Below are positions 637 to 12,225 of a stretch of DNA of 64,000 nucleotides, in pieces. The notes beneath the pieces are model-generated. The model was given only the letters and a program-made list of their open reading frames with translations. It did not search any database and was not told the DNA's origin. The first letter of the stretch is position 1, and every line of letters begins with the position of its first letter. The translations under genes and the position numbers were made by a program. Source of the stretch: a virus; the IMG/VR virus record IMGVR_UViG_3300042301_002363, positions 1 through 64,000 of that record. The stretch is one strand, 5' to 3'.

Positions 637-1412
637 AAAGAACAGTAAGTGGCATGGATGCCTATGCGAAAATTCTGTCTACTGGATTACCAGAGAAAAC
701 AGAAACTTACACCCCAATCTCACATGCAAGTGTGATAAACCGTGTGAGAAGTGAGATAACCAATGCTGGTTTTATTATCACTGGAGAAGATTACAGATGT
801 ACCAATGATGGGCAAATTGCTCTAGGTACATTAAGAATGAATTATAAAGCAGACCCAGACATTGAGTTGTCTGCTAATTTTACCAATTCATACAACAAAC
901 AACTTGCCTTCAGATTTAATCTTGGAGGCTTAGTAAAAGTCTGTATGAATGGTATGATGTTGAATAACAACAAGTTTGGCAAATTTAAACGCGTACATAA
1001 AGGTGCAGCAGATCTTTTAGCAGAAGGTATCATTAGTGATTATATAAATAACGCTGGTGAATACTGGGATTCTTTAGTAGAACACAAAGATTCTATGAAA
1101 GGAATCTTATTGTCAAGCACTGCGCAGCATGATGTACTAGGTGAATTATTCTTAAAAAGAGATGTCATAAATACAATGCAGCTTAACACTGTAAAGAAAG
1201 AGTTGATTAAACCATCTTTTGATTATAAAGTTGATTCTGATTCTGCGTGGGCATTGTATAATCACATTACTTTAGCACTGAAAGATTCACATCCTTCAGA
1301 CTGGATGGAAGATCAAATCAAAGTTCATGAAGTGTTTTCTAATATGCTTGACTTGGATAAAACTGAAGTAGAACTAACACCTGTAGAAGATGAACATATC
1401 ATTCTTGAATGA
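633..1412 (+). CDS. DUF932-like phage protein
   Basis: TYTPISH, NSYNKQ..F..G..V.VCMNGM, H, and SAWALYNHIT..LK resemble the DUF932 family. ATGA overlap with the polymerase stop. Confidence 0.65.
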   Translation: MKRTVSGMDAYAKILSTGLPEKTETYTPISHASVINRVRSEITNAGFIITGEDYRCTNDGQIALGTLRMNYKADPDIELSANFTNSYNKQLAFRFNLGGLVKVCMNGMMLNNNKFGKFKRVHKGAADLLAEGIISDYINNAGEYWDSLVEHKDSMKGILLSSTAQHDVLGELFLKRDVINTMQLNTVKKELIKPSFDYKVDSDSAWALYNHITLALKDSHPSDWMEDQIKVHEVFSNMLDLDKTEVELTPVEDEHIILE

Positions 1413-1578
1413 CATAATAAAAGATACTTATTATGTAGTTATGAAGAGAAAGAAAAACTCTAATCATGACAAGTTAGAAATTCTCAGAAGATTCTTAAAA
1501 GTAAAGTACAATATTACTATTGGAATGGAGTCTTTGAAAAGAAGAGATAAAGAATACAAGGGTCAAAATAAAGGTTAA
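1390..1578 (+). CDS. Hypothetical basic protein, 62 aa
   Basis: ORF overlaps the end of the upstream gene and is followed by a hairpin. Confidence 0.55.
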   Translation: MNISFLNDIIKDTYYVVMKRKKNSNHDKLEILRRFLKVKYNITIGMESLKRRDKEYKGQNKG

Positions 1579-1586
1579 ATGGAAAG

Positions 1587-1631
1587 TCTGTAGAAACGAA
1601 AATCCCCCATCACTGGGGGACTTTCTACAGA
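1587..1631. terminator. Hairpin between convergent gene blocks (probable terminator)
   Basis: TCCCCCA-tcac-TGGGGGA inner stem (1603-1620) nested in outer arms TCTGTAGAAA (1587-1596) and TTTCTACAGA (1622-1631). Confidence 0.65.
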
Positions 1632-1669
1632 AGAAGAAAAACCACTAAACATTTGCATAGTAGCATCTT

Positions 1670-1816
1670 TTATCGCCCTTGCCCTTTGTAGCTCTTGCGA
1701 TAGTTTTTTGAGTTCTTAGACTTTGATGTTTTTGTTTTTGCATGAACACCTGGTCTAGAAACTTCAGGTTTCTTCAAAAAGGATGTAACGCTACTGGTTT
1801 TAAGCTTCGCTGCCAT
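1670..1816 (-). CDS. Small Lys/Ser-rich basic protein, 48 aa (absent from the ORF track)
   Basis: Manual translation: MAAKLKTSSVTSFLKKPEVSRPGVHAKTKTSKSKNSKNYRKSYKGQGR*. Overlaps the end of the upstream gene and fills the gap before the hairpin. The Y-x-GQGR ending is one I recall from other small phage proteins. Confidence 0.7.
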   Translation of the reverse strand: MAAKLKTSSVTSFLKKPEVSRPGVHAKTKTSKSKNSKNYRKSYKGQGR

Positions 1817-1985
1817 CTTTCTTTTCTTTTTTGTCTACAACAGACCATATAAGACCTGCTAGAGTAATTACAGAACCAACAATTTCAGTAAGTGTAGATT
1901 CATCAACTGTGCCTCTTACAACAAGAAAACCTCCAACAAAGGTTAAAATGTGTCGTGCAATTCCTAGGATTTGATTTTGATTCAT
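1800..1985 (-). CDS. Putative holin (two TM helices, basic C-terminus)
   Basis: ILGIARHILTFVGGFLVVRG...IVGSVITLAGLIWSVV then KKEKK. Directly downstream of endolysin genes. Confidence 0.65.
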   Translation of the reverse strand: MNQNQILGIARHILTFVGGFLVVRGTVDESTLTEIVGSVITLAGLIWSVVDKKEKKDGSEA

Positions 1986-1999
1986 ACTTATTAGTTTAA

Positions 2000-2815
2000 T
2001 TAAATAATATCGCTGCTTTCTATTAATGTATAGGTAAAGTTATTACCATGAAGTGCTTTGGCCTTGCGACAAATTGCCATAAACTCTTCAAAGTCTGCTG
2101 CTTTTTTAAACACTTGACATCCTTCAGACCAGTTTTCTACAAATGTAGAATCTGCACCTGCTTTATGAATATTGATACCAAAAACACCTTCTTGAATAGA
2201 TTTCTCATCATATGTCATATCTTTGTTTGGATCACGATAAACTTTTACTGGTTTGTTTTGTCCTAATGCTTCATACTTACCAGCGTGAAGTCTCATGATA
2301 TGAGAGTCAACATATTGACCTTCAACTAGTCTAGCAACACCAGCCTTGTTACCAAATTGCATAACACCCTTTGTTCCTGGATCTGTAGTAGCTGGCCATA
2401 CGTGGCATTTCCAAACTCCATTTTCTGTATAAGAAAGAGTTATGTTATCATCAAATAGATTAGTTACCTTCTGACCTGTTGCAGAATTTCTTACCCCAAT
2501 GATGTTTAAAAGAAAGTCTTTATGCTCAAACCACTTATAACCTTTTGCCTTAACAGCAGTTTCAAGTTGTTCTTTGGTATACTTACCTACTGTTGCAGGT
2601 TTATTACTTTCAGTAGCACCAAATTTAGTTACAATAATGCCAAGTTTGGCTAATGTAGCAGGACCTACAATTCCATCTGGAGTAAGTCCCTGCTTTTTTT
2701 GAAACTCAATAACAGCAGCTTCTGTTTTTGGTCCAAAGTTTCCTGTTTGCTCTACACCTAATACTGCTTGAATTTTCTTAACAACATCATTGTTGTCTCC
2801 TTTTTTCAGTGTCAT
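2000..2815 (-). CDS. Putative endolysin: N-terminal peptidoglycan-binding domain plus His/Cys (YkuD/L,D-transpeptidase-like) domain
   Basis: LKKGD..VKKIQ..L...GNFGPKTEAAVIEFQ..GLTPDGIVGPAT fits PG_binding_1. GINIHKAG...WSEGCQV matches the H-x(14-17)-S-x-GC pattern. Confidence 0.7.
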   Translation of the reverse strand: MTLKKGDNNDVVKKIQAVLGVEQTGNFGPKTEAAVIEFQKKQGLTPDGIVGPATLAKLGIIVTKFGATESNKPATVGKYTKEQLETAVKAKGYKWFEHKDFLLNIIGVRNSATGQKVTNLFDDNITLSYTENGVWKCHVWPATTDPGTKGVMQFGNKAGVARLVEGQYVDSHIMRLHAGKYEALGQNKPVKVYRDPNKDMTYDEKSIQEGVFGINIHKAGADSTFVENWSEGCQVFKKAADFEEFMAICRKAKALHGNNFTYTLIESSDII

Positions 2816-2825
2816 AATTCTATAT

Positions 2826-3284
2826 TTATTTTTTAAAGTACAAGTTTGCTTCAGCTTCTCTACGTCTAACTAAACCAGTCAGCGTTTTACCACCTGCTTT
2901 TACCCATTTCATAAATTCTAATCTGATAGATTCATCATTAGGATTAGCGTTTACTTTTTTAAGTAACGTAGAAGATTTCAAGTTTGCTGGCCCTAAGTTG
3001 TAAGCAAATGATACTAACGCATCAAATTGATTCTGTGTAATAGTGTCTACACAATAACTGTCTACGTATTTTTCAAAACTAATAAGCATGTTTGCTAACA
3101 ATTCAACAGCTTGTTCTTCTGTTATGCTTGCATCACTCATTGTTACTTTTTTCCCACCAGGATAGAATGTTGCACCATATCCAATTGTAGGAACACCTGC
3201 AGAACATTTGTAAGGAGCTGCTCTGAACCCTTCAAAAGATTTGATTAAATCAATCCCTGCTTTCGCTGTCTGTGTTATTTTCAT
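2826..3284 (-). CDS. Lysozyme, GH24 family endolysin
   Basis: IKSFEGFRAAPYKCSAGVPTIGYG gives the E-x8-C-x5-T triad. Also QNQFDALVSFAYNLG and GLVRRREAE. Confidence 0.92.
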   Translation of the reverse strand: MKITQTAKAGIDLIKSFEGFRAAPYKCSAGVPTIGYGATFYPGGKKVTMSDASITEEQAVELLANMLISFEKYVDSYCVDTITQNQFDALVSFAYNLGPANLKSSTLLKKVNANPNDESIRLEFMKWVKAGGKTLTGLVRRREAEANLYFKK

Positions 3285-3525
3285 CTTCGTTCTTTTTTTT
3301 GTTTGACATAATTCTACCTACTGTAGTAATTCCAAATGCTCCAAGGGTAATAATCATAAAGCCATCAAAGATGAACTCTTTTATGACAAGTTCTTTACCC
3401 CATATGCCTGTAACTACATCTACTGTTAGGATAAATACCATAGCAAAAAATGCTATTACCCCTACAAATGTTTGCTCGTTTATTTGATTATCATTTGAAA
3501 CGAGTTGTTTAAAAAACTTTTTCAT
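3250..3525 (-). CDS. Small two-TM membrane protein (holin/antiholin candidate), 91 aa
   Basis: Likely start is MKKFFKQ at 3525, just after the PAS gene stop. Two hydrophobic helices and a charged C-terminus. Overlaps the lysozyme start. Confidence 0.6.
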   Translation of the reverse strand: MKKFFKQLVSNDNQINEQTFVGVIAFFAMVFILTVDVVTGIWGKELVIKEFIFDGFMIITLGAFGITTVGRIMSNKKKNEDENNTDSESRD

Positions 3526-3529
3526 ATTC

Positions 3530-4645
3530 TTACTTTTTTTCTTTACTGCCTTCTTGAGTAGCATACTTGATACCCATGATTGTACCAACTATTGAAAAGG
3601 CATTTGTTAATAATACACTAAACATGTTACTCCATGTTGAACCAATAATTTGTGTGTCTTGATTTGTTACAATGGCCATCCAGTATAACACAGTTGTTAC
3701 AGCCCCCACTCCTACTATAACAGATAACGCAACTTTGACAATTATTTTTATTAGCTCACTTTGACTTTTCTTCATCATTACATCTAAGTCATTTAAAGCT
3801 GCATCTTTCTCTATCTCTATTGCATTTTTAAGTTTTTGAGAGTTATCAAGTTCTATTTGTAAATTCTTTGAAAGATCCTCTATCTTCTTCTCATTGTTTA
3901 CAGCTTCAGTAACATCAGTTGCAATTTTAACTACGTCAGTGATATTTCCTTTACTGTCTAAAACAGGATTATAAGATGCTTGTAAGTAAACAGTAGAACC
4001 ATCTACTTTTCTTCTTTCAAATATCCCATCAAAGTATTTTCCTTTTCTTAAACTTTCCCAAAACTTAGTATACTCATCAGACTTAGAATACTCATAACTT
4101 ACAAAAACACTGTGATGTTTACCAATGACTTTATTTTGCTCATTAGCTTTATAACCCATTGTTTCTAAGAATACAGAATTTACTTCTGTTATAAACCCAT
4201 CAATGTTAAAATTGATAAGAGCTGTACTTCTGTTGATTGCGTCTATCTGTTTTTTGCTATTGACAATTAAACTAATGTCAGTAGCAATCTTCATTACTTT
4301 AGTAATCTTACCATCCTCATTAAAGATAGGATTGTAAGTTGCTTGAAGATTGATAAGACTTCCATCCTTTCTTCTTCTTTCAAATTCACCAGTGTAATAC
4401 TTACCACTTCTTAAGATGTCCCAGAACTTTTCATACTCAAGGGATCTTGCGTAATCATCACATACAAAGATGCTATGGTGTTTACCAATGATATCATCAT
4501 GGTTGCCTTTGCCATAACCCATTGCTTCCAAAAAAATGTCATTAACCCCTAGTATAATACCAGCGAGGTCAAAGTAGATAATAGCGTTGCTTCTATTAAT
4601 CGCTTCAAGTCTACTTAATAATTCTTCTTTTGGTAAATTTTTCAT
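3530..4645 (-). CDS. Tandem PAS/PAC domain protein with coiled coil and C-terminal TM helices
   Basis: Two ~122-aa repeats AINRS.A.I.F...G.I..VN..FL..MGY.....IGKHHS.FV......EY.KFW..LR.GKY..G.FERR..DGS...LQA.YNP.....G.IT.V.KIATD, typical of chemoreceptor-type PAS domains. Hydrophobic C-terminus. Confidence 0.88.
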   Translation of the reverse strand: MKNLPKEELLSRLEAINRSNAIIYFDLAGIILGVNDIFLEAMGYGKGNHDDIIGKHHSIFVCDDYARSLEYEKFWDILRSGKYYTGEFERRRKDGSLINLQATYNPIFNEDGKITKVMKIATDISLIVNSKKQIDAINRSTALINFNIDGFITEVNSVFLETMGYKANEQNKVIGKHHSVFVSYEYSKSDEYTKFWESLRKGKYFDGIFERRKVDGSTVYLQASYNPVLDSKGNITDVVKIATDVTEAVNNEKKIEDLSKNLQIELDNSQKLKNAIEIEKDAALNDLDVMMKKSQSELIKIIVKVALSVIVGVGAVTTVLYWMAIVTNQDTQIIGSTWSNMFSVLLTNAFSIVGTIMGIKYATQEGSKEKK

Positions 4646-4902
4646 TACTTATTTATCAATTGTCTCACTGTATCTGCTAAATCTCCAACATTCTTTGCTA
4701 GATTTTTAATTTCCAACTGAGTTTGCTCTTGAATAGCTTGGTACTTTAGTCTTGATTCTTGTTCTACAAGTTCAATTTTTCCTTTAAGTTTACCTTGTTC
4801 TTCTGTATTTTTACGTACATCACTGTGTACAATTTTTAAGAAGTATCCAATAATTGTTATGGCAGTACCCAAGATGAATACTACAATGTCTGAACTTGTC
4901 AT
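4645..4902 (-). CDS. Membrane protein, N-terminal TM plus coiled coil (lysis accessory candidate)
   Basis: IVVFILGTAITIIGYFL followed by a heptad-like Q/E/K-rich segment. Overlaps both neighbours (ATGA and TAATG). Confidence 0.6.
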   Translation of the reverse strand: MTSSDIVVFILGTAITIIGYFLKIVHSDVRKNTEEQGKLKGKIELVEQESRLKYQAIQEQTQLEIKNLAKNVGDLADTVRQLINK

Positions 4903-5375
4903 CTCCTAAATTGTTTAATGATTAATAAGATTGCAACTAATATTATAGCAAGAAATAGCATCCACCAAGGAAAACCTGATCTTTCTGTATACTTTGTTTT
5001 TTTAGTTTCAGCTTTGGTATTTTGCTTATTAATCTTAACTGCTGCAGATAATGAGTCATCATACATTCTAGCCATGATTTTCAGTGAGTCTTTGAATCTC
5101 TTATTATCAAATCTAGTTTGCCATCTAGTTTGCCATCTTGTTTCTACAGTGGCTTCTGGACAATTGCAGGGTACTTGGGTAGTAACATAGATTAATGAGT
5201 CTTTGCCATCTTTACCTTTGACAAGTAAAGTATCTGTTTTTTCTACATAGATTGTATCACACGTAATTTTACCACCTTTGGAATAGAACTTATCCAAATG
5301 GTATTTAGCATTGTGACAACTAGATACAATAACTAACAATGACAATAATGTAAGTAGTACAAAAAGTTTTTTCAT
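4899..5375 (-). CDS. Putative unimolecular spanin (lipoprotein with C-terminal TM)
   Basis: Signal peptide MKKLFVLLTLLSLLVIVSSC with lipobox Cys, and C-terminal TM FPWWMLFLAIILVAILLII-KQFRR. First gene of the lysis block. Confidence 0.7.
   Translation of the reverse strand: MKKLFVLLTLLSLLVIVSSCHNAKYHLDKFYSKGGKITCDTIYVEKTDTLLVKGKDGKDSLIYVTTQVPCNCPEATVETRWQTRWQTRFDNKRFKDSLKIMARMYDDSLSAAVKINKQNTKAETKKTKYTERSGFPWWMLFLAIILVAILLIIKQFRR
5112..5143. repeat. 12-bp tandem repeat (about 2.7 copies) encoding TRWQ-TRWQ-TRF
   Basis: tctagtttgcca tctagtttgcca tcttgttt. Confidence 0.8.
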
Positions 5376-5400
5376 ATGTCTTTTTTTGTACTCTCACCTT

Positions 5401-5436
5401 CCTCAAGTATAAGATAATACAAATATCTGAAATTAC
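5401..5436 (-). promoter_or_regulatory. Conserved phage promoter-like motif, copy A (upstream of lysis block)
   Basis: Minus strand GTAATTTCA-N11-TATCTT-N5-TGAGG. Same layout in three other intergenic regions. Confidence 0.6.
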
Positions 5437-5479
5437 ATGAAAATACTTACACATTTTGTAAATTTTTTTCATAAAGTTT

Positions 5480-5511
5480 TTTGGCAGCCAATGTAAATTT
5501 TACGATCTTTG
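5480..5511 (+). promoter_or_regulatory. Bacteroidota sigma-A-like promoter upstream of the RNR gene
   Basis: TTTG-N20-GATCTTTG versus consensus TTTG-N19/21-TAnnTTTG (one mismatch). Confidence 0.5.
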
Positions 5512-5554
5512 TTGCCTTTCCATTTTATTTTTTTAACCCTATAATTCTTAAATT

Positions 5555-7462
5555 ATGACAGAAACAAAAGCGAGTTCTCTTGTTGTGCCTTGGGGTCCAG
5601 TAGGGTATGTTACTTACAAAAGAACATACTCCAGACCAACCAAAAATGGCAAAACAGAAGAGTGGCATGATACTATTGAAAGAGTAGTAGATGCATGTAA
5701 AAATCAACTAGAAGTTGGATTTTCAAAAACAGAAGAAGATTCTTTAAGAAGAATCATGGCAAACCTGAAAGGTACAGTAGCAGGGAGATTCTTATGGCAA
5801 CTAGGTACAAAAACCGTTGACAAATTAGGATTACCATCTTTGCAAAACTGTGCGTTTGTAGTTTGTGACGAACCCATTAGACCATTTACATGGGCATTTG
5901 AAATGCTTATGTTAGGTTCAGGTGTAGGATTTAACATCCAACGTGAACATGTTTATCAAATACCTAAAGTCCTTAAGAAGGTAAAGGTAGAACGCATGGA
6001 TGTTAATGATGCTGATTTTATTGTACCTGATTCAAGAGAAGGTTGGGTTGAACTTATGAGACGTGTTCTTGAGGCATCATTTGTAACAGGACAAGGATTT
6101 ACATATGCATGTCACCTTATTCGTTCAAAAGGTTCGCCAATCAAAGGATTTGGTGGTGTGGCATCTGGTCCACAAGACTTAGTATGGGGAATTGGAGAAA
6201 TCAATAACATCTTGAATAGTAGAGCTGGTAAAAGACTGCGTTCTATTGACTGTCTTGACATTATGAATATCATTGGTCGCATTGTTGTTGCAGGTAACGT
6301 AAGACGTTCAGCACAAATTGCACTTGGTGATTATGATGACTTTGATTTTTTACGTGCAAAACGTTGGGATTTAGGTAACATTCCTAACTGGCGTGCAATG
6401 AGCAACAACTCAGTCATATGTGATGATACAACAAAATTACCAGAAGAGTTTTGGGAAGGTTATAAAGGTAATGGTGAACCGTATGGTTTAATAAACCTTG
6501 ATGCTTCTCGCAGAATGGGTAGAGTTGATGAGATTCAGTATCCTGATCCAGAAGTTATGGGTTTCAATCCATGTGCAGAACAGTCTTTAGCTAACTTTGA
6601 GACATGTTGTTTGGCAGAAATCTATTTACCAAACATTGATTCTTATGATGAGTTAAAAGAAGTTGCTCGTACATTGTACAGAATCAATAAACATTCTTTG
6701 GCAATCAAGTGCGCTATTAAAGAAACTGAGGATATTGTACACAAGAACATGAGAATGGGTATTGGTGTTACAGGTTATCTTCAGGCTACTGATGAGCAAC
6801 GTTCATGGTTGTCAGATTGCTATGTGTATTTGCGCGCATATGATGAAGAGTACAGTAAGCAAAAAGGATTTAATCCATCTATCAAACTTACAACAGTTAA
6901 ACCTTCAGGTACATTGAGTCTACTTGCAGGTGTTACATCAGGCGCACATCCAGCTTATTCTCAATATTACATTCGTAGAATTAGAATGTCTTCTGACAGT
7001 CCTATTGTAAACGTGTGTAGAAAGAATGGATACCCAGTAGAGTTTCAGCGAAATTTTGATGGCACTGAGGATCATAGTACTGCAATAGTATCTTTTCCTT
7101 GTAAATTTCCAAAACATACAATTCTTGCTAATGACATGACAGCTGTAGACCAGTTAGAAGTAATCAAAAGATTGCAAACAGAATGGTCTGATAACGCAGT
7201 GTCTGTTACAATCTACTATCGCAAGCATGAGTTAGATGAAATTAAACAATGGCTTTCTGAGAACTATTTTAATGTGAAGTCTGTATCATTCTTGCTTCAC
7301 AATGATCATGGTTTTGATCAAGCACCATTAGAAGAAATCACTGAAGACAGATACAATGAACTTTCAGCATCTGTAATTCCTATTTCATCTTTTGATGATA
7401 CCATCAATTTAGATGATTTGGATATTGCAGACTGCGATGGAGGAGCCTGTCCTGTTAGATAA
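5555..7462 (+). CDS. nrdJ: Class II (adenosylcobalamin-dependent) ribonucleotide reductase
   Basis: YKRTYSR, GRFLW, LQNC, GSGVG, VVAGNVRRSA, catalytic NPCAE, TTVKPSGT and C-terminal CDGGACPVR. No small-subunit gene adjacent. Confidence 0.9.
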   Translation: MTETKASSLVVPWGPVGYVTYKRTYSRPTKNGKTEEWHDTIERVVDACKNQLEVGFSKTEEDSLRRIMANLKGTVAGRFLWQLGTKTVDKLGLPSLQNCAFVVCDEPIRPFTWAFEMLMLGSGVGFNIQREHVYQIPKVLKKVKVERMDVNDADFIVPDSREGWVELMRRVLEASFVTGQGFTYACHLIRSKGSPIKGFGGVASGPQDLVWGIGEINNILNSRAGKRLRSIDCLDIMNIIGRIVVAGNVRRSAQIALGDYDDFDFLRAKRWDLGNIPNWRAMSNNSVICDDTTKLPEEFWEGYKGNGEPYGLINLDASRRMGRVDEIQYPDPEVMGFNPCAEQSLANFETCCLAEIYLPNIDSYDELKEVARTLYRINKHSLAIKCAIKETEDIVHKNMRMGIGVTGYLQATDEQRSWLSDCYVYLRAYDEEYSKQKGFNPSIKLTTVKPSGTLSLLAGVTSGAHPAYSQYYIRRIRMSSDSPIVNVCRKNGYPVEFQRNFDGTEDHSTAIVSFPCKFPKHTILANDMTAVDQLEVIKRLQTEWSDNAVSVTIYYRKHELDEIKQWLSENYFNVKSVSFLLHNDHGFDQAPLEEITEDRYNELSASVIPISSFDDTINLDDLDIADCDGGACPVR

Positions 7463-10977: not shown

Positions 10978-12225
10978 TTATCTACTTATTTCTTCCCAGT
11001 CTACTGAAGCATAAGCTCCTAATGTGCCTCCTATAACATCAATAGCCATTTCAATAACTATTTCAAATGCTACTCCTGTAAAAGTATTTCTTTCTAGTTG
11101 AGCTGCAAATAAAGCTTCTTTTAGTATATCCATACTTGGAGAACCTTGATTAGATGAATTTATATATCCTTGTGCTAATACTCTACCTCCTGTAGCAGAT
11201 GCTCCTGTAAGGTTATATTCTACAGATGAATCTGCACTTGCTGGATTCCAAGCTCCACCTGTTATTGTGGCTCCATTCACAACTCTCCATGCATAGTTTT
11301 TACCATTACCTAAACCTAATAAAGATACAGCAGTAAGAATAGCAATAGCATCCAATCTAGTAAATCTTAATCTAATACCTACAATAGGATAAAATGTCCC
11401 TGCTACTGCAAAAGTTCTTGGAGTAGTAATAGGAGTACCAACAGCTTGTTGTGCACCTCTTAATTCATAACCTCCTTCTGATATAACAGTAGAACATACT
11501 TGTTTCAATGTAGCAGGAATACCTGTTGCTCCTCCAGATATCTCATATCGTAATGGTAATGAAGCTGTTGTAATATATGTAGAGGTAATTAAGTTAGCGT
11601 GGTTAAATCTATGACAAAGTATAAAGTTGCCATCAATAACAAATCCTAATCTTACTGTTCCTTCACCCAACCACTCAATATCCATGAAAAGAATTTGAGC
11701 TTTAGTTATATCAAGAGTTACTCCTGAAGGGCCTGTGCCATCTAATGTGTCTACATTCCAAGCAGTTTGAGGTACACTATTTTCAGTTAAGCTACCTGTT
11801 ACTATACTTCTTTCTACAAAACTTAAAACATCATCTCTAAGTTCTATATAAATGCCATTATCTATTCCAAAATATCCTACTCTTTGTCTAAGATCTATTT
11901 GTGCAGGAGCCATTACAAATGTATTAAATACAAGTAGTGACTTACCTGGTTGATAAGAGAATACTTTTGAAGTTTCTCTTATTACTTGAGATCCAGCTGC
12001 ACCAGTTACATTTAAATTTACTAGTCCTTCATTTGGACTAAATACAGCAGTACCACCTATTGTAGCAAGTGTATTCCATAAACCATTGTCCCTATATCTA
12101 TGAGATGAATCAAATAAAGTTAAAGGTTCTGATACTCTCAATCTTCCAAATGCATCAGTCAGCATAGGTTGGTTACTAAGAAGCGAAAAGTTTTTTGGTA
12201 TCGCTGATGTTATAGATGTTCCCAT
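10978..12225 (-). CDS. Conserved phage protein, probable virion structural protein (beta-sandwich)
   Basis: DAFGRLRVSEPLTLFD, YQPGK, EWLGEGTVRLGF, LPLRYEI and terminal WEE form a pattern I recall from aquatic phage proteins. Confidence 0.6.
   Translation of the reverse strand: MGTSITSAIPKNFSLLSNQPMLTDAFGRLRVSEPLTLFDSSHRYRDNGLWNTLATIGGTAVFSPNEGLVNLNVTGAAGSQVIRETSKVFSYQPGKSLLVFNTFVMAPAQIDLRQRVGYFGIDNGIYIELRDDVLSFVERSIVTGSLTENSVPQTAWNVDTLDGTGPSGVTLDITKAQILFMDIEWLGEGTVRLGFVIDGNFILCHRFNHANLITSTYITTASLPLRYEISGGATGIPATLKQVCSTVISEGGYELRGAQQAVGTPITTPRTFAVAGTFYPIVGIRLRFTRLDAIAILTAVSLLGLGNGKNYAWRVVNGATITGGAWNPASADSSVEYNLTGASATGGRVLAQGYINSSNQGSPSMDILKEALFAAQLERNTFTGVAFEIVIEMAIDVIGGTLGAYASVDWEEISR

Follow-up and report, generated by a model that had tools for sequence, protein, structure and literature searches.

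In phage T4, lysis inhibition is exerted by the antiholin RI, which acts on the holin T in the periplasm (PMC11413866), and RIII is described, with reference to Chen and Young 2016, as a cytoplasmic antiholin (PMC7182436). Lysis inhibition in the vibriophage ICP1 involves the holin TeaA and the antiholin ArrA (PMC7182436), and in both phages it is reported to answer superinfection (PMC11413866, PMC7182436). A PAS domain is also known from a phage: VqmA of the vibriophage VP882 is a PAS-domain receptor for quorum sensing and also a transcription factor (PMC8284805). Here, we describe a viral gene (3530..4645, minus strand) encoding a 371-amino-acid protein, in which two PAS domains are connected by a long helix to a two-helix membrane hairpin, and which is located among putative lysis genes. 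The window analyzed is a stretch of 64,000 nucleotides (positions 1 to 64,000 of the IMG/VR record IMGVR_UViG_3300042301_002363). Based on the anatomy of the protein and its genomic context, we suggest, with a probability of about 0.5, that it is an optional sensor-effector of the lysis cassette that gates the timing of lysis.

A PAS pair joined to a membrane hairpin

The open reading frame (ORF) begins with ATG, ends with a stop codon at 3530-3532 and encodes 371 amino acids (aa). In Pfam, PAS_3 (PF08447) matched two stretches of the product, residues 33-120 and 147-244 (E 1.9e-25; score 89.3 bits, cut-off 25.6), and PAS_9, PAS and PAS_4 were matched as well. The generic PAS S-box model TIGR00229 (E 3.8e-28) was the sole NCBIfam model above its cut-off, and no PHROG family was assigned to the whole protein. 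The two domains are identical at 61 of 114 positions, and each of the motifs named in a preliminary description of this DNA occurs twice in register: GKHHS at 54 and 175, FW at 74 and 195, DGS at 94 and 215, YNP at 104 and 225, and KIATD at 119 and 240. The same description stated that two PAS repeats were present and that no kinase, methyl-accepting chemotaxis protein (MCP) or GGDEF output domain accompanied them, and this agrees with Pfam, where HATPase_c, MCPsignal, GGDEF and HAMP all failed to reach the cut-off in the 371-aa protein. Neither Pfam nor NCBIfam revealed an MCP signaling domain, the other matches being multi-domain PAS models far below cut-off. The JGI label of some relatives, 'methyl-accepting chemotaxis protein', is wrong for the output, since no MCP domain is present.

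An AlphaFold2 (AF2) model was obtained from a 36-row alignment (mean predicted local distance difference test score, pLDDT, 86). It contained PAS folds at residues 21-123 and 142-244 with pLDDT above 90, an unbroken helix at 246-327 and, after a turn of four residues, a second helix at 332-364, with the C-terminus coming 7 residues past this second membrane helix. PAS domain 1 was assigned to residues 21-124 (4274..4585, minus strand; H57 and W75), and PAS domain 2 to residues 141-245 (3911..4225, minus strand; H178 and W196). They are followed by a cytoplasmic connector helix, residues 246-296 (3758..3910, minus strand), which runs into transmembrane (TM) helix 1, residues 297-327 (3665..3757, minus strand). 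A short loop and the amphipathic TM helix 2 occupy residues 328-364 (3554..3664, minus strand). According to the model, the connector between the PAS pair and the membrane part is a long helix, and a coiled coil beyond that is not called.

Hydropathy analysis gave two hydrophobic segments, at about 298-327 (peak at 298-316, score 2.37) and 341-359, followed by KYATQEGSKEKK. The two hydrophobic helices and the basic tail noted earlier were thus recovered both by hydropathy and in the AF2 model. Because lysines precede TM1, the loop lacks positive charge and the tail is basic, an N-in/C-in topology with cytoplasmic PAS domains is predicted. Class II holins are small proteins with two TM helices, an N-in/C-in topology and a charged C-terminus. 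The protein has two predicted TM helices and a basic tail, but it is 371 aa long with a 296-residue cytoplasmic part, and its topology is read from hydropathy and flanking charges.

By sequence, the closest solved structures of the PAS pair were the flavin adenine dinucleotide (FAD) sensors MmoS (E 2.2e-8), NifL and Aer; PAS1 was aligned to the FAD-binding PAS domains of MmoS and NifL, and PAS2 to the Aer PAS domain (8dik). When folds were ranked by Foldseek, MmoS came first, followed by DosP, NifL, LOV-HK and FixL. These matches support the comparison with soluble chemoreceptors (AerC/BdlA) made in the preliminary description. The F-alpha Trp of MmoS, NifL and Aer has its aligned counterparts in W75 and W196, which are both invariant in the 36- and 35-row alignments; H57 and H178 align with H53 of Aer and are invariant or nearly so in the same alignments. 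The F-alpha Trp has been described as the primary FAD determinant, and the AerC and Aer FAD clusters as conserving the His, with Asn conserved in other clusters only (PMC10468136). H53 of Aer is reported to stack on the flavin, and H53, N85 and R115 are given as the flavin contacts (PMC9668731).

Two of these three contacts, as named in that source, are not kept in the PAS pair. In the HMMER alignments, Arg stands at the Asn site of both domains (R89 of PAS1 opposite an Asn of MmoS, and R210 of PAS2 opposite N85 of Aer), and A242 of PAS2 stands opposite R115 of Aer; A121 is the PAS1 counterpart of A242 through the internal repeat, without an Aer alignment. However, Asn is conserved only in some FAD clusters, and its mismatch therefore does not rule out the AerC type; at the level of aligned residues, Trp plus His without Asn in both domains is the AerC-cluster pattern. 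Both PAS domains of BdlA and of McpS have been listed as predicted FAD binders (PMC8694187). Based on the FAD-sensor structural matches and the Trp/His pattern, the PAS pair is most likely a flavin-type redox sensor with predicted FAD binding.

In a library of 1.84 billion representatives, 53,810 proteins were matched at E <= 0.001. Among the best 150 representatives, 148 matched the PAS region and connector only (27-48% identity); these are multi-PAS proteins of 422-2576 aa, and their best-scoring stretch ends by residue 319. The tail was matched by only two of the 150, a protein of 371 aa (P0248) and a 251-aa piece (P0293). A megablast search of a collection of 50,697 phage records with positions 1500-5600 gave no match, and tblastn of the 371-aa protein against the same records matched three of them. 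The best, and the one strong match, was MT836939.1 (locus L001; 'Bacteriophage sp.', unverified, 8.2 kb). Its high GC content, its complete PAS-PAS-MCP protein and its GGDEF/EAL-like protein make it look like bacterial rather than phage DNA; the reading by eye gave a resolvase-like fragment, a 675-aa PAS-PAS-MCP protein and a protein of 698 aa bearing motifs like those of GGDEF and EAL.

The lysis neighborhood of the fused gene

At least 179 relatives of the fused gene were found in IMG/VR, and the best 80 were examined using a set of lysis markers drawn from these loci and checked in Pfam (M15_3 peptidase, GH19, Amidase_2, Phage_holin_4_1). Across these loci, the fused PAS protein was 83-99% identical to that of the window, while its neighbors were 35-95% identical and were shuffled or swapped for other enzyme types. 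A peptidoglycan hydrolase was encoded within 2.5 kb on the same strand in 75 of the 80 loci. The hydrolases included T4 lysozyme, M15 peptidase, GH19, amidase_2 and a PG_binding protein (phrog_3000 and endolysin PHROGs), and the gene order varied. Some lysis-type neighbor was present in 78 loci, and the remaining two had less than 100 nucleotides (nt) of downstream flank; a small TM ORF was found within 1.3 kb in 76. According to neighbor clustering, a family of proteins with two TM helices and 72-104 aa, designated F1, was present in 67 of 81 loci, at position +1 in 39 and at position -1 in 22, and so directly adjacent to the PAS gene in 61. Even the most divergent fused members (74-76% identical) adjoin endolysins.

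The preliminary description had regarded homologues that were mostly chromosomal and unlinked to lysis genes as evidence to the contrary. All full-length fused homologues were found on phage-like contigs, with the hydrolase and lysis-type neighbors counted above. The closest GTDB matches came from contigs in metagenome bins with the labels Saprospira, Flavobacteriales, Ignavibacteria and Saccharibacteria; these contigs appear to be of phage origin and to have been included in the bins. No receiver or kinase core was found in the flanks of the 80 fused loci, in the 371-aa protein or across the 88-kb genome of the window.

The lysis genes of the window lie on the minus strand. The first encodes a 158-aa protein (4899..5375) whose sequence contains a lipobox (VSSC) and whose hydropathy profile shows a C-terminal TM helix; it has no family match in Pfam or PHROGs, and its architecture, which we read by eye, appears similar to that of a unimolecular spanin. 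It is followed by an 85-aa protein with an N-terminal TM helix and a coil (4645..4902), an i-spanin-like architecture according to hydropathy, with weak matches to phrog_6179 and phrog_462. The PAS gene comes next, its start codon being overlapped by the stop of the 85-aa gene (TAATG). After it there are F1 (3250..3525), a T4-type lysozyme acting as a predicted endolysin (2826..3284; PF00959, E 3.6e-43; phrog_7 endolysin, E 3.2e-55) and a second cell-wall enzyme (2000..2815). The latter combines PG_binding_1 (PF01471, E 9.1e-15) with a C-terminal phrog_3000 domain (E 4.6e-34; family of unknown function), and matches several endolysin PHROGs. A holin of the Pam3 gp28 family with 61 aa and two TM helices by hydropathy (1800..1985; PF23987, E 1.7e-18) and a Lys/Ser-rich, very basic ORF product of 48 aa (1670-1816) complete the set. 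Both the overlap with the upstream neighbor and the place between the spanin-like gene and the holin candidate and lysozyme, as given in the preliminary description, were found in the sequence. The only terminator-like hairpin within 1400-5600 lies at 1604..1620 (minus strand), and therefore one densely packed late operon probably spans from about 5400 to about 1600. The 48-aa basic peptide recurs at the end of related cassettes (L002, L011, L012, L020, L023, L035, L040, L068 and L079).

F1 has 91 aa, two TM helices and a charged C-terminal tail, and it is holin-like by architecture alone, with no holin match in Pfam or PHROG. Its relatives align from the inner ATG (3525) and not from the TTG (3588) of the 112-aa ORF 3250-3588. 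This ATG lies 4 nt past the stop of the PAS gene, and the TTG-started ORF is therefore probably the 91-aa protein. The N-terminal extension of the 112-aa ORF only seems conserved, being an out-of-frame reading of the invariant tail of the PAS gene.

The presence of the PAS gene was also assessed from the side of F1, in the best 80 of 376 IMG/VR loci with an F1 relative. The fused gene was found in 18 loci, a split form (described below) in 3 and neither in 43 (each flanked by at least 1.3 kb on either side), and 16 loci were too short. In the PAS-less sisters, two small TM/coil genes fill the slot between the 85-aa gene and F1, at which alternative membrane modules seem to be exchanged. In L093 (3379-4004), L106 (3379-4004) and L118 (2692-4004), two or three small genes of the TM/coil or lipoprotein-like kind lie in this slot.

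The genome of the window is one contig of 88,097 bp. Of the words sampled from this stretch, at least 66% recur in 18 further runs from 15 studies, labelled lake water metagenome or metagenome, with no RNA run among those listed. Apart from the lysis genes, a 415-aa virion structural protein (phrog_1645; 10978-12225, minus strand) was 63-65% identical to its counterparts in the T4-like cyanophages S-RIM12 and S-RIM8 and in the Puniceispirillum phage HMO-2011, which is strikingly high across such different phage groups.

The hairpin and its stand-alone relatives

In 53 distinct proteins, residues 331-363, comprising the end of the loop and all of TM2, do not vary; 21 of 21 columns are invariant in TM2 and 10 of 13 in the loop. 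Selection was judged by codon-diversity counts. In the loop and TM2, synonymous codon diversity was 0.39 and amino-acid diversity 0.025, and the synonymous diversity at 331-363 was the highest in the gene (0.39-0.40 vs 0.23-0.38 elsewhere). Since synonymous sites are free while the residues are invariant, the constraint on 331-363 acts on the protein; a DNA element and a recent sweep, considered as causes of the invariance, were ruled out by the high synonymous diversity. As a module, the hairpin occurs in phages only, and selection on its protein sequence is very strong. The Ser, Thr, Asn and Gly residues of TM2 (S339, N340, S343, T347, N348, S351, G354, T355 and G358) all face one half of the helix, and the hydrophobic moment is 0.92 for TM2 against 0.57 for TM1.

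The tail, residues 281-371 (3533-3805, minus strand), gave weak matches to phrog_1544 (E 0.0019, profile positions 124-189 of 200) and phrog_37634 (E 0.012, profile positions 315-370 of 416). Both are families of unknown function matched at their C-terminal ends, and they could represent the hairpin behind other N-terminal domains. A search of the ESM Atlas with the tail as the query returned no usable match.

The preliminary description had proposed a search for stand-alone, holin-like homologues of the tail. Stand-alone relatives of about 190 aa do exist, but they are not recognizable holins, and they form the third gene of a kinase-receiver-hairpin module. A query of residues 250-371 had 1920 matches among shorter proteins; of 10 inspected, 8 contained the end of PAS2 and 2 started in the connector. 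The assumption that the tail never stands alone, the short matches being cut-off pieces, was overturned by a stand-alone family at F1 loci without the fused gene. A 189-aa member and the window protein share 51% identity between residues 42-187 of the former and residues 220-364 of the latter (E 8e-42), so that the connectors of the two are homologous, and the alignments show the invariant stretch DTQIIGSTWSNMF..LLTNAFSIVGTIMG.KYA to be common to the window protein and the ~190-aa hairpin family. The 189-aa family had 7043 matches at E <= 0.001 among proteins of 103-331 aa, a count that probably includes cut-off fused pieces; the best 120 were 189-207 aa long with 99-100% coverage. The 189-aa protein belongs to no Pfam family, and tblastn with it found no match in the 50,697 phage records. 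The alignment of the stand-alone family shows the same invariant hairpin together with a conserved N-terminal region of about 70 residues, which the fused form lacks, and the model of the stand-alone protein has the same single long helix and hairpin. The family is found on phage contigs of very different genome sizes, up to 430 kb.

The neighborhoods of the stand-alone gene were analyzed in 80 IMG/VR loci. Upstream of it, there was a receiver gene in 78 of them and a histidine kinase, often bearing PAS domains, in 74, and a lysis marker was located near this split module in 54. At L095 (the same contig as L164), the genes encode F1, a T4-type lysozyme, the kinase, the receiver, the 189-aa protein and a PG_binding protein. 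The kinase of this locus is a membrane protein of 540 aa with two PAS domains and HATPase_c (E 1.7e-12), and its PAS pair is 32% identical to that of the window protein (E 4e-46). The regulator is receiver-only (143 aa; Response_reg, PF00072, E 1.6e-8). No HisKA model scored above threshold in the kinase, for which Pfam shows HATPase_c and PAS only; LRHDMHSG was read by us in the kinase (4708-6330) at the place where an H-box is expected. At other split loci, the kinase core is kept and the PAS sensors are different or absent. The hairpin is shared with this relay-driven form, while the genome of the window has no kinase core or receiver. Based on this, we infer that the window protein is a fused, one-protein short-circuit of the kinase-receiver-hairpin pathway, with PAS apparently wired straight to the output.

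Candidate functions and comparison with known systems

We propose the following sequence of events for the gating of lysis. The PAS pair probably binds FAD and would read a cytoplasmic redox or energy signal. Through the helix, the resulting conformational change would be passed on to the hairpin in the inner membrane, whose packing or oligomeric state would shift. The triggering of the cassette holins may then be advanced or delayed, either by action on the holins themselves or by a change in membrane energization, and lysis timing would become tied to the state of the infected cell. Holins in general respond to membrane energization. A wider form of this proposal is more tentative: the aquatic phages' own pathways, whether a kinase-receiver relay or a direct PAS fusion, may converge on one invariant hairpin serving as a universal lysis trigger or brake for any holin family, for example, via membrane energization, so that a strictly lytic phage would time its burst by the redox or energy state.

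Several results weigh against a role in gating lysis. When compared alone with Pfam and PHROG holins, the tail gave no significant match, the best being the phrog_11161 holin with E 0.22; the hairpin family and the adjacent F1 family showed no profile similarity (hhalign probability 3.7%), and a BFVD fold search with the model of the hairpin protein found one uncharacterized family member only and no holin. The term 'holin-like', used for the tail in the preliminary description, therefore holds for topology and not for sequence family. F1 proteins are merely 13-84% identical while the hairpin is invariant, which makes a co-evolving helix-helix contact between them less likely; a complex prediction for the tail (residues 240-371) with F1 scored 0.00 against a mark of 0.32 and is neither support nor counter-evidence. 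Furthermore, the gene is dispensable, 43 of the 64 informative F1 cassettes lacking it. No lysis marker was nearby in 26 of the 80 split loci, several of which are short-flanked and all of which were judged with a limited marker set, and in L201 and L182 the split module lies amid unrelated genes. The replaced flavin contacts described above count on the same side. The rival explanations considered below stay alive because the hairpin is invariant beside a variable F1, holin homology is absent and about one third of the split modules have no recognized lysis neighbor.

Alternatively, the hairpin would be an effector on a conserved host membrane target or process outside lysis, such as respiration or the proton-motive force, superinfection exclusion or the blocking of a membrane defense, its adjacency to lysis genes reflecting only a shared late, membrane-directed role. 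The nearby phage membrane proteins all vary, and an invariant hairpin fits a host partner or self-assembly better than a holin partner; the split loci without a recognized lysis gene, the optional nature of the gene and the lack of holin homology point the same way. However, the fused gene is embedded in the cassette and has stayed beside lysis genes in 75-78 of 80 loci even though genes were shuffled and enzymes replaced, and most split modules adjoin lysis genes despite the small marker set. We therefore regard such an effector as unlikely, although it is the strongest of the alternatives. It is less likely still that the protein itself forms a PAS-gated pore, as a holin or pinholin whose amphipathic TM2 lines a hole or an ion leak, depolarizes the membrane and fires lysis. 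The predicted N-in/C-in arrangement of two TM helices with a basic C-terminal tail resembles class II holins, TM2 confines its polar and small residues to one half of the helix and has a larger hydrophobic moment than TM1, and a generic depolarizing trigger would suit any holin family and fit the mosaic neighbors. Nevertheless, the window already encodes a Pam3-type holin and the two-TM F1, most sister cassettes work without the gene, its product of 371 aa is far larger than those of the adjacent holin and holin-like genes (61 and 91 aa), and it has no homology to a holin family.

Interference with host PAS signaling was also raised in the preliminary description, and nothing was found in its favor. 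In this case, the protein would be a decoy that forms heterodimers at the membrane with PAS kinases or chemoreceptors of the host. PAS domains often dimerize, and many cellular multi-PAS proteins resemble the PAS pair at 27-48% identity. On the other hand, the strongest constraint is on the hairpin and not on the PAS surface, no link was seen between the gene and host signaling genes, and a kinase and a receiver of their own accompany the split relatives, suggesting that the phage pathway is self-contained. A decoy function is thus highly improbable. Among the functions considered, a sensor-effector that gates lysis timing remains our preferred one.

In full-text searches of the open-access literature, we came upon no link between PAS and holins, no phage PAS protein in lysis besides VqmA and no kinase-regulator pair in a lysis cassette. 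By this literature and by the family searches, the system has no described counterpart, its function being read from anatomy and context. Lysis timing sets the burst size and fitness of a phage. In the parts of the literature that were retrieved, environmentally responsive control of lysis was represented only by superinfection lysis inhibition in T-even phages and ICP1. If the proposed gating is true, lysis gated by an intracellular signal would be a control principle described for no studied phage, and phages would set the time of host death by the physiological condition of the infected cell. Thousands of database proteins belong to the family, which is abundant in metagenomes from lakes and other aquatic sites. 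The invariant hairpin is a candidate for a new class of small membrane effectors, and the fused form could be used as a natural switch, made of one protein, to put cell lysis under the control of a signal.

With the uncharacterized phage kinase-receiver-hairpin modules, the window protein shares the homologous hairpin and connector, PAS domains of the same type as in the kinase and often the same lysis neighborhood. It differs from them in having no phosphorelay and in the PAS pair that replaces the conserved N-terminal region of about 70 residues. The chemoreceptors AerC, Aer and BdlA, together with MmoS and NifL, are similar to it in PAS fold, in sequence and in the Trp and His present in both domains; unlike them, the window protein has no HAMP, MCP or kinase part after the PAS domains, and N85 and R115 of Aer are replaced by Arg and Ala. 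Aer itself is built as a PAS domain, a linker and a membrane hairpin, an order that resembles the window protein. VqmA is likewise a phage-encoded PAS-domain receptor, but it is a soluble transcription factor and controls the switch from lysogeny to lysis in a temperate phage, whereas here PAS is fused to a membrane hairpin within a lysis operon. Lysis inhibition in T4 and ICP1 appears to be the nearest functional analogy to the PAS-hairpin protein: in each case, a dispensable protein beside holin-type genes would couple a sensed condition to the triggering of the holin. There is no relation in sequence or fold between them, and the system described here would use a cytoplasmic tandem PAS sensor, or a kinase-receiver relay in its relatives, with an invariant two-TM hairpin as the output.

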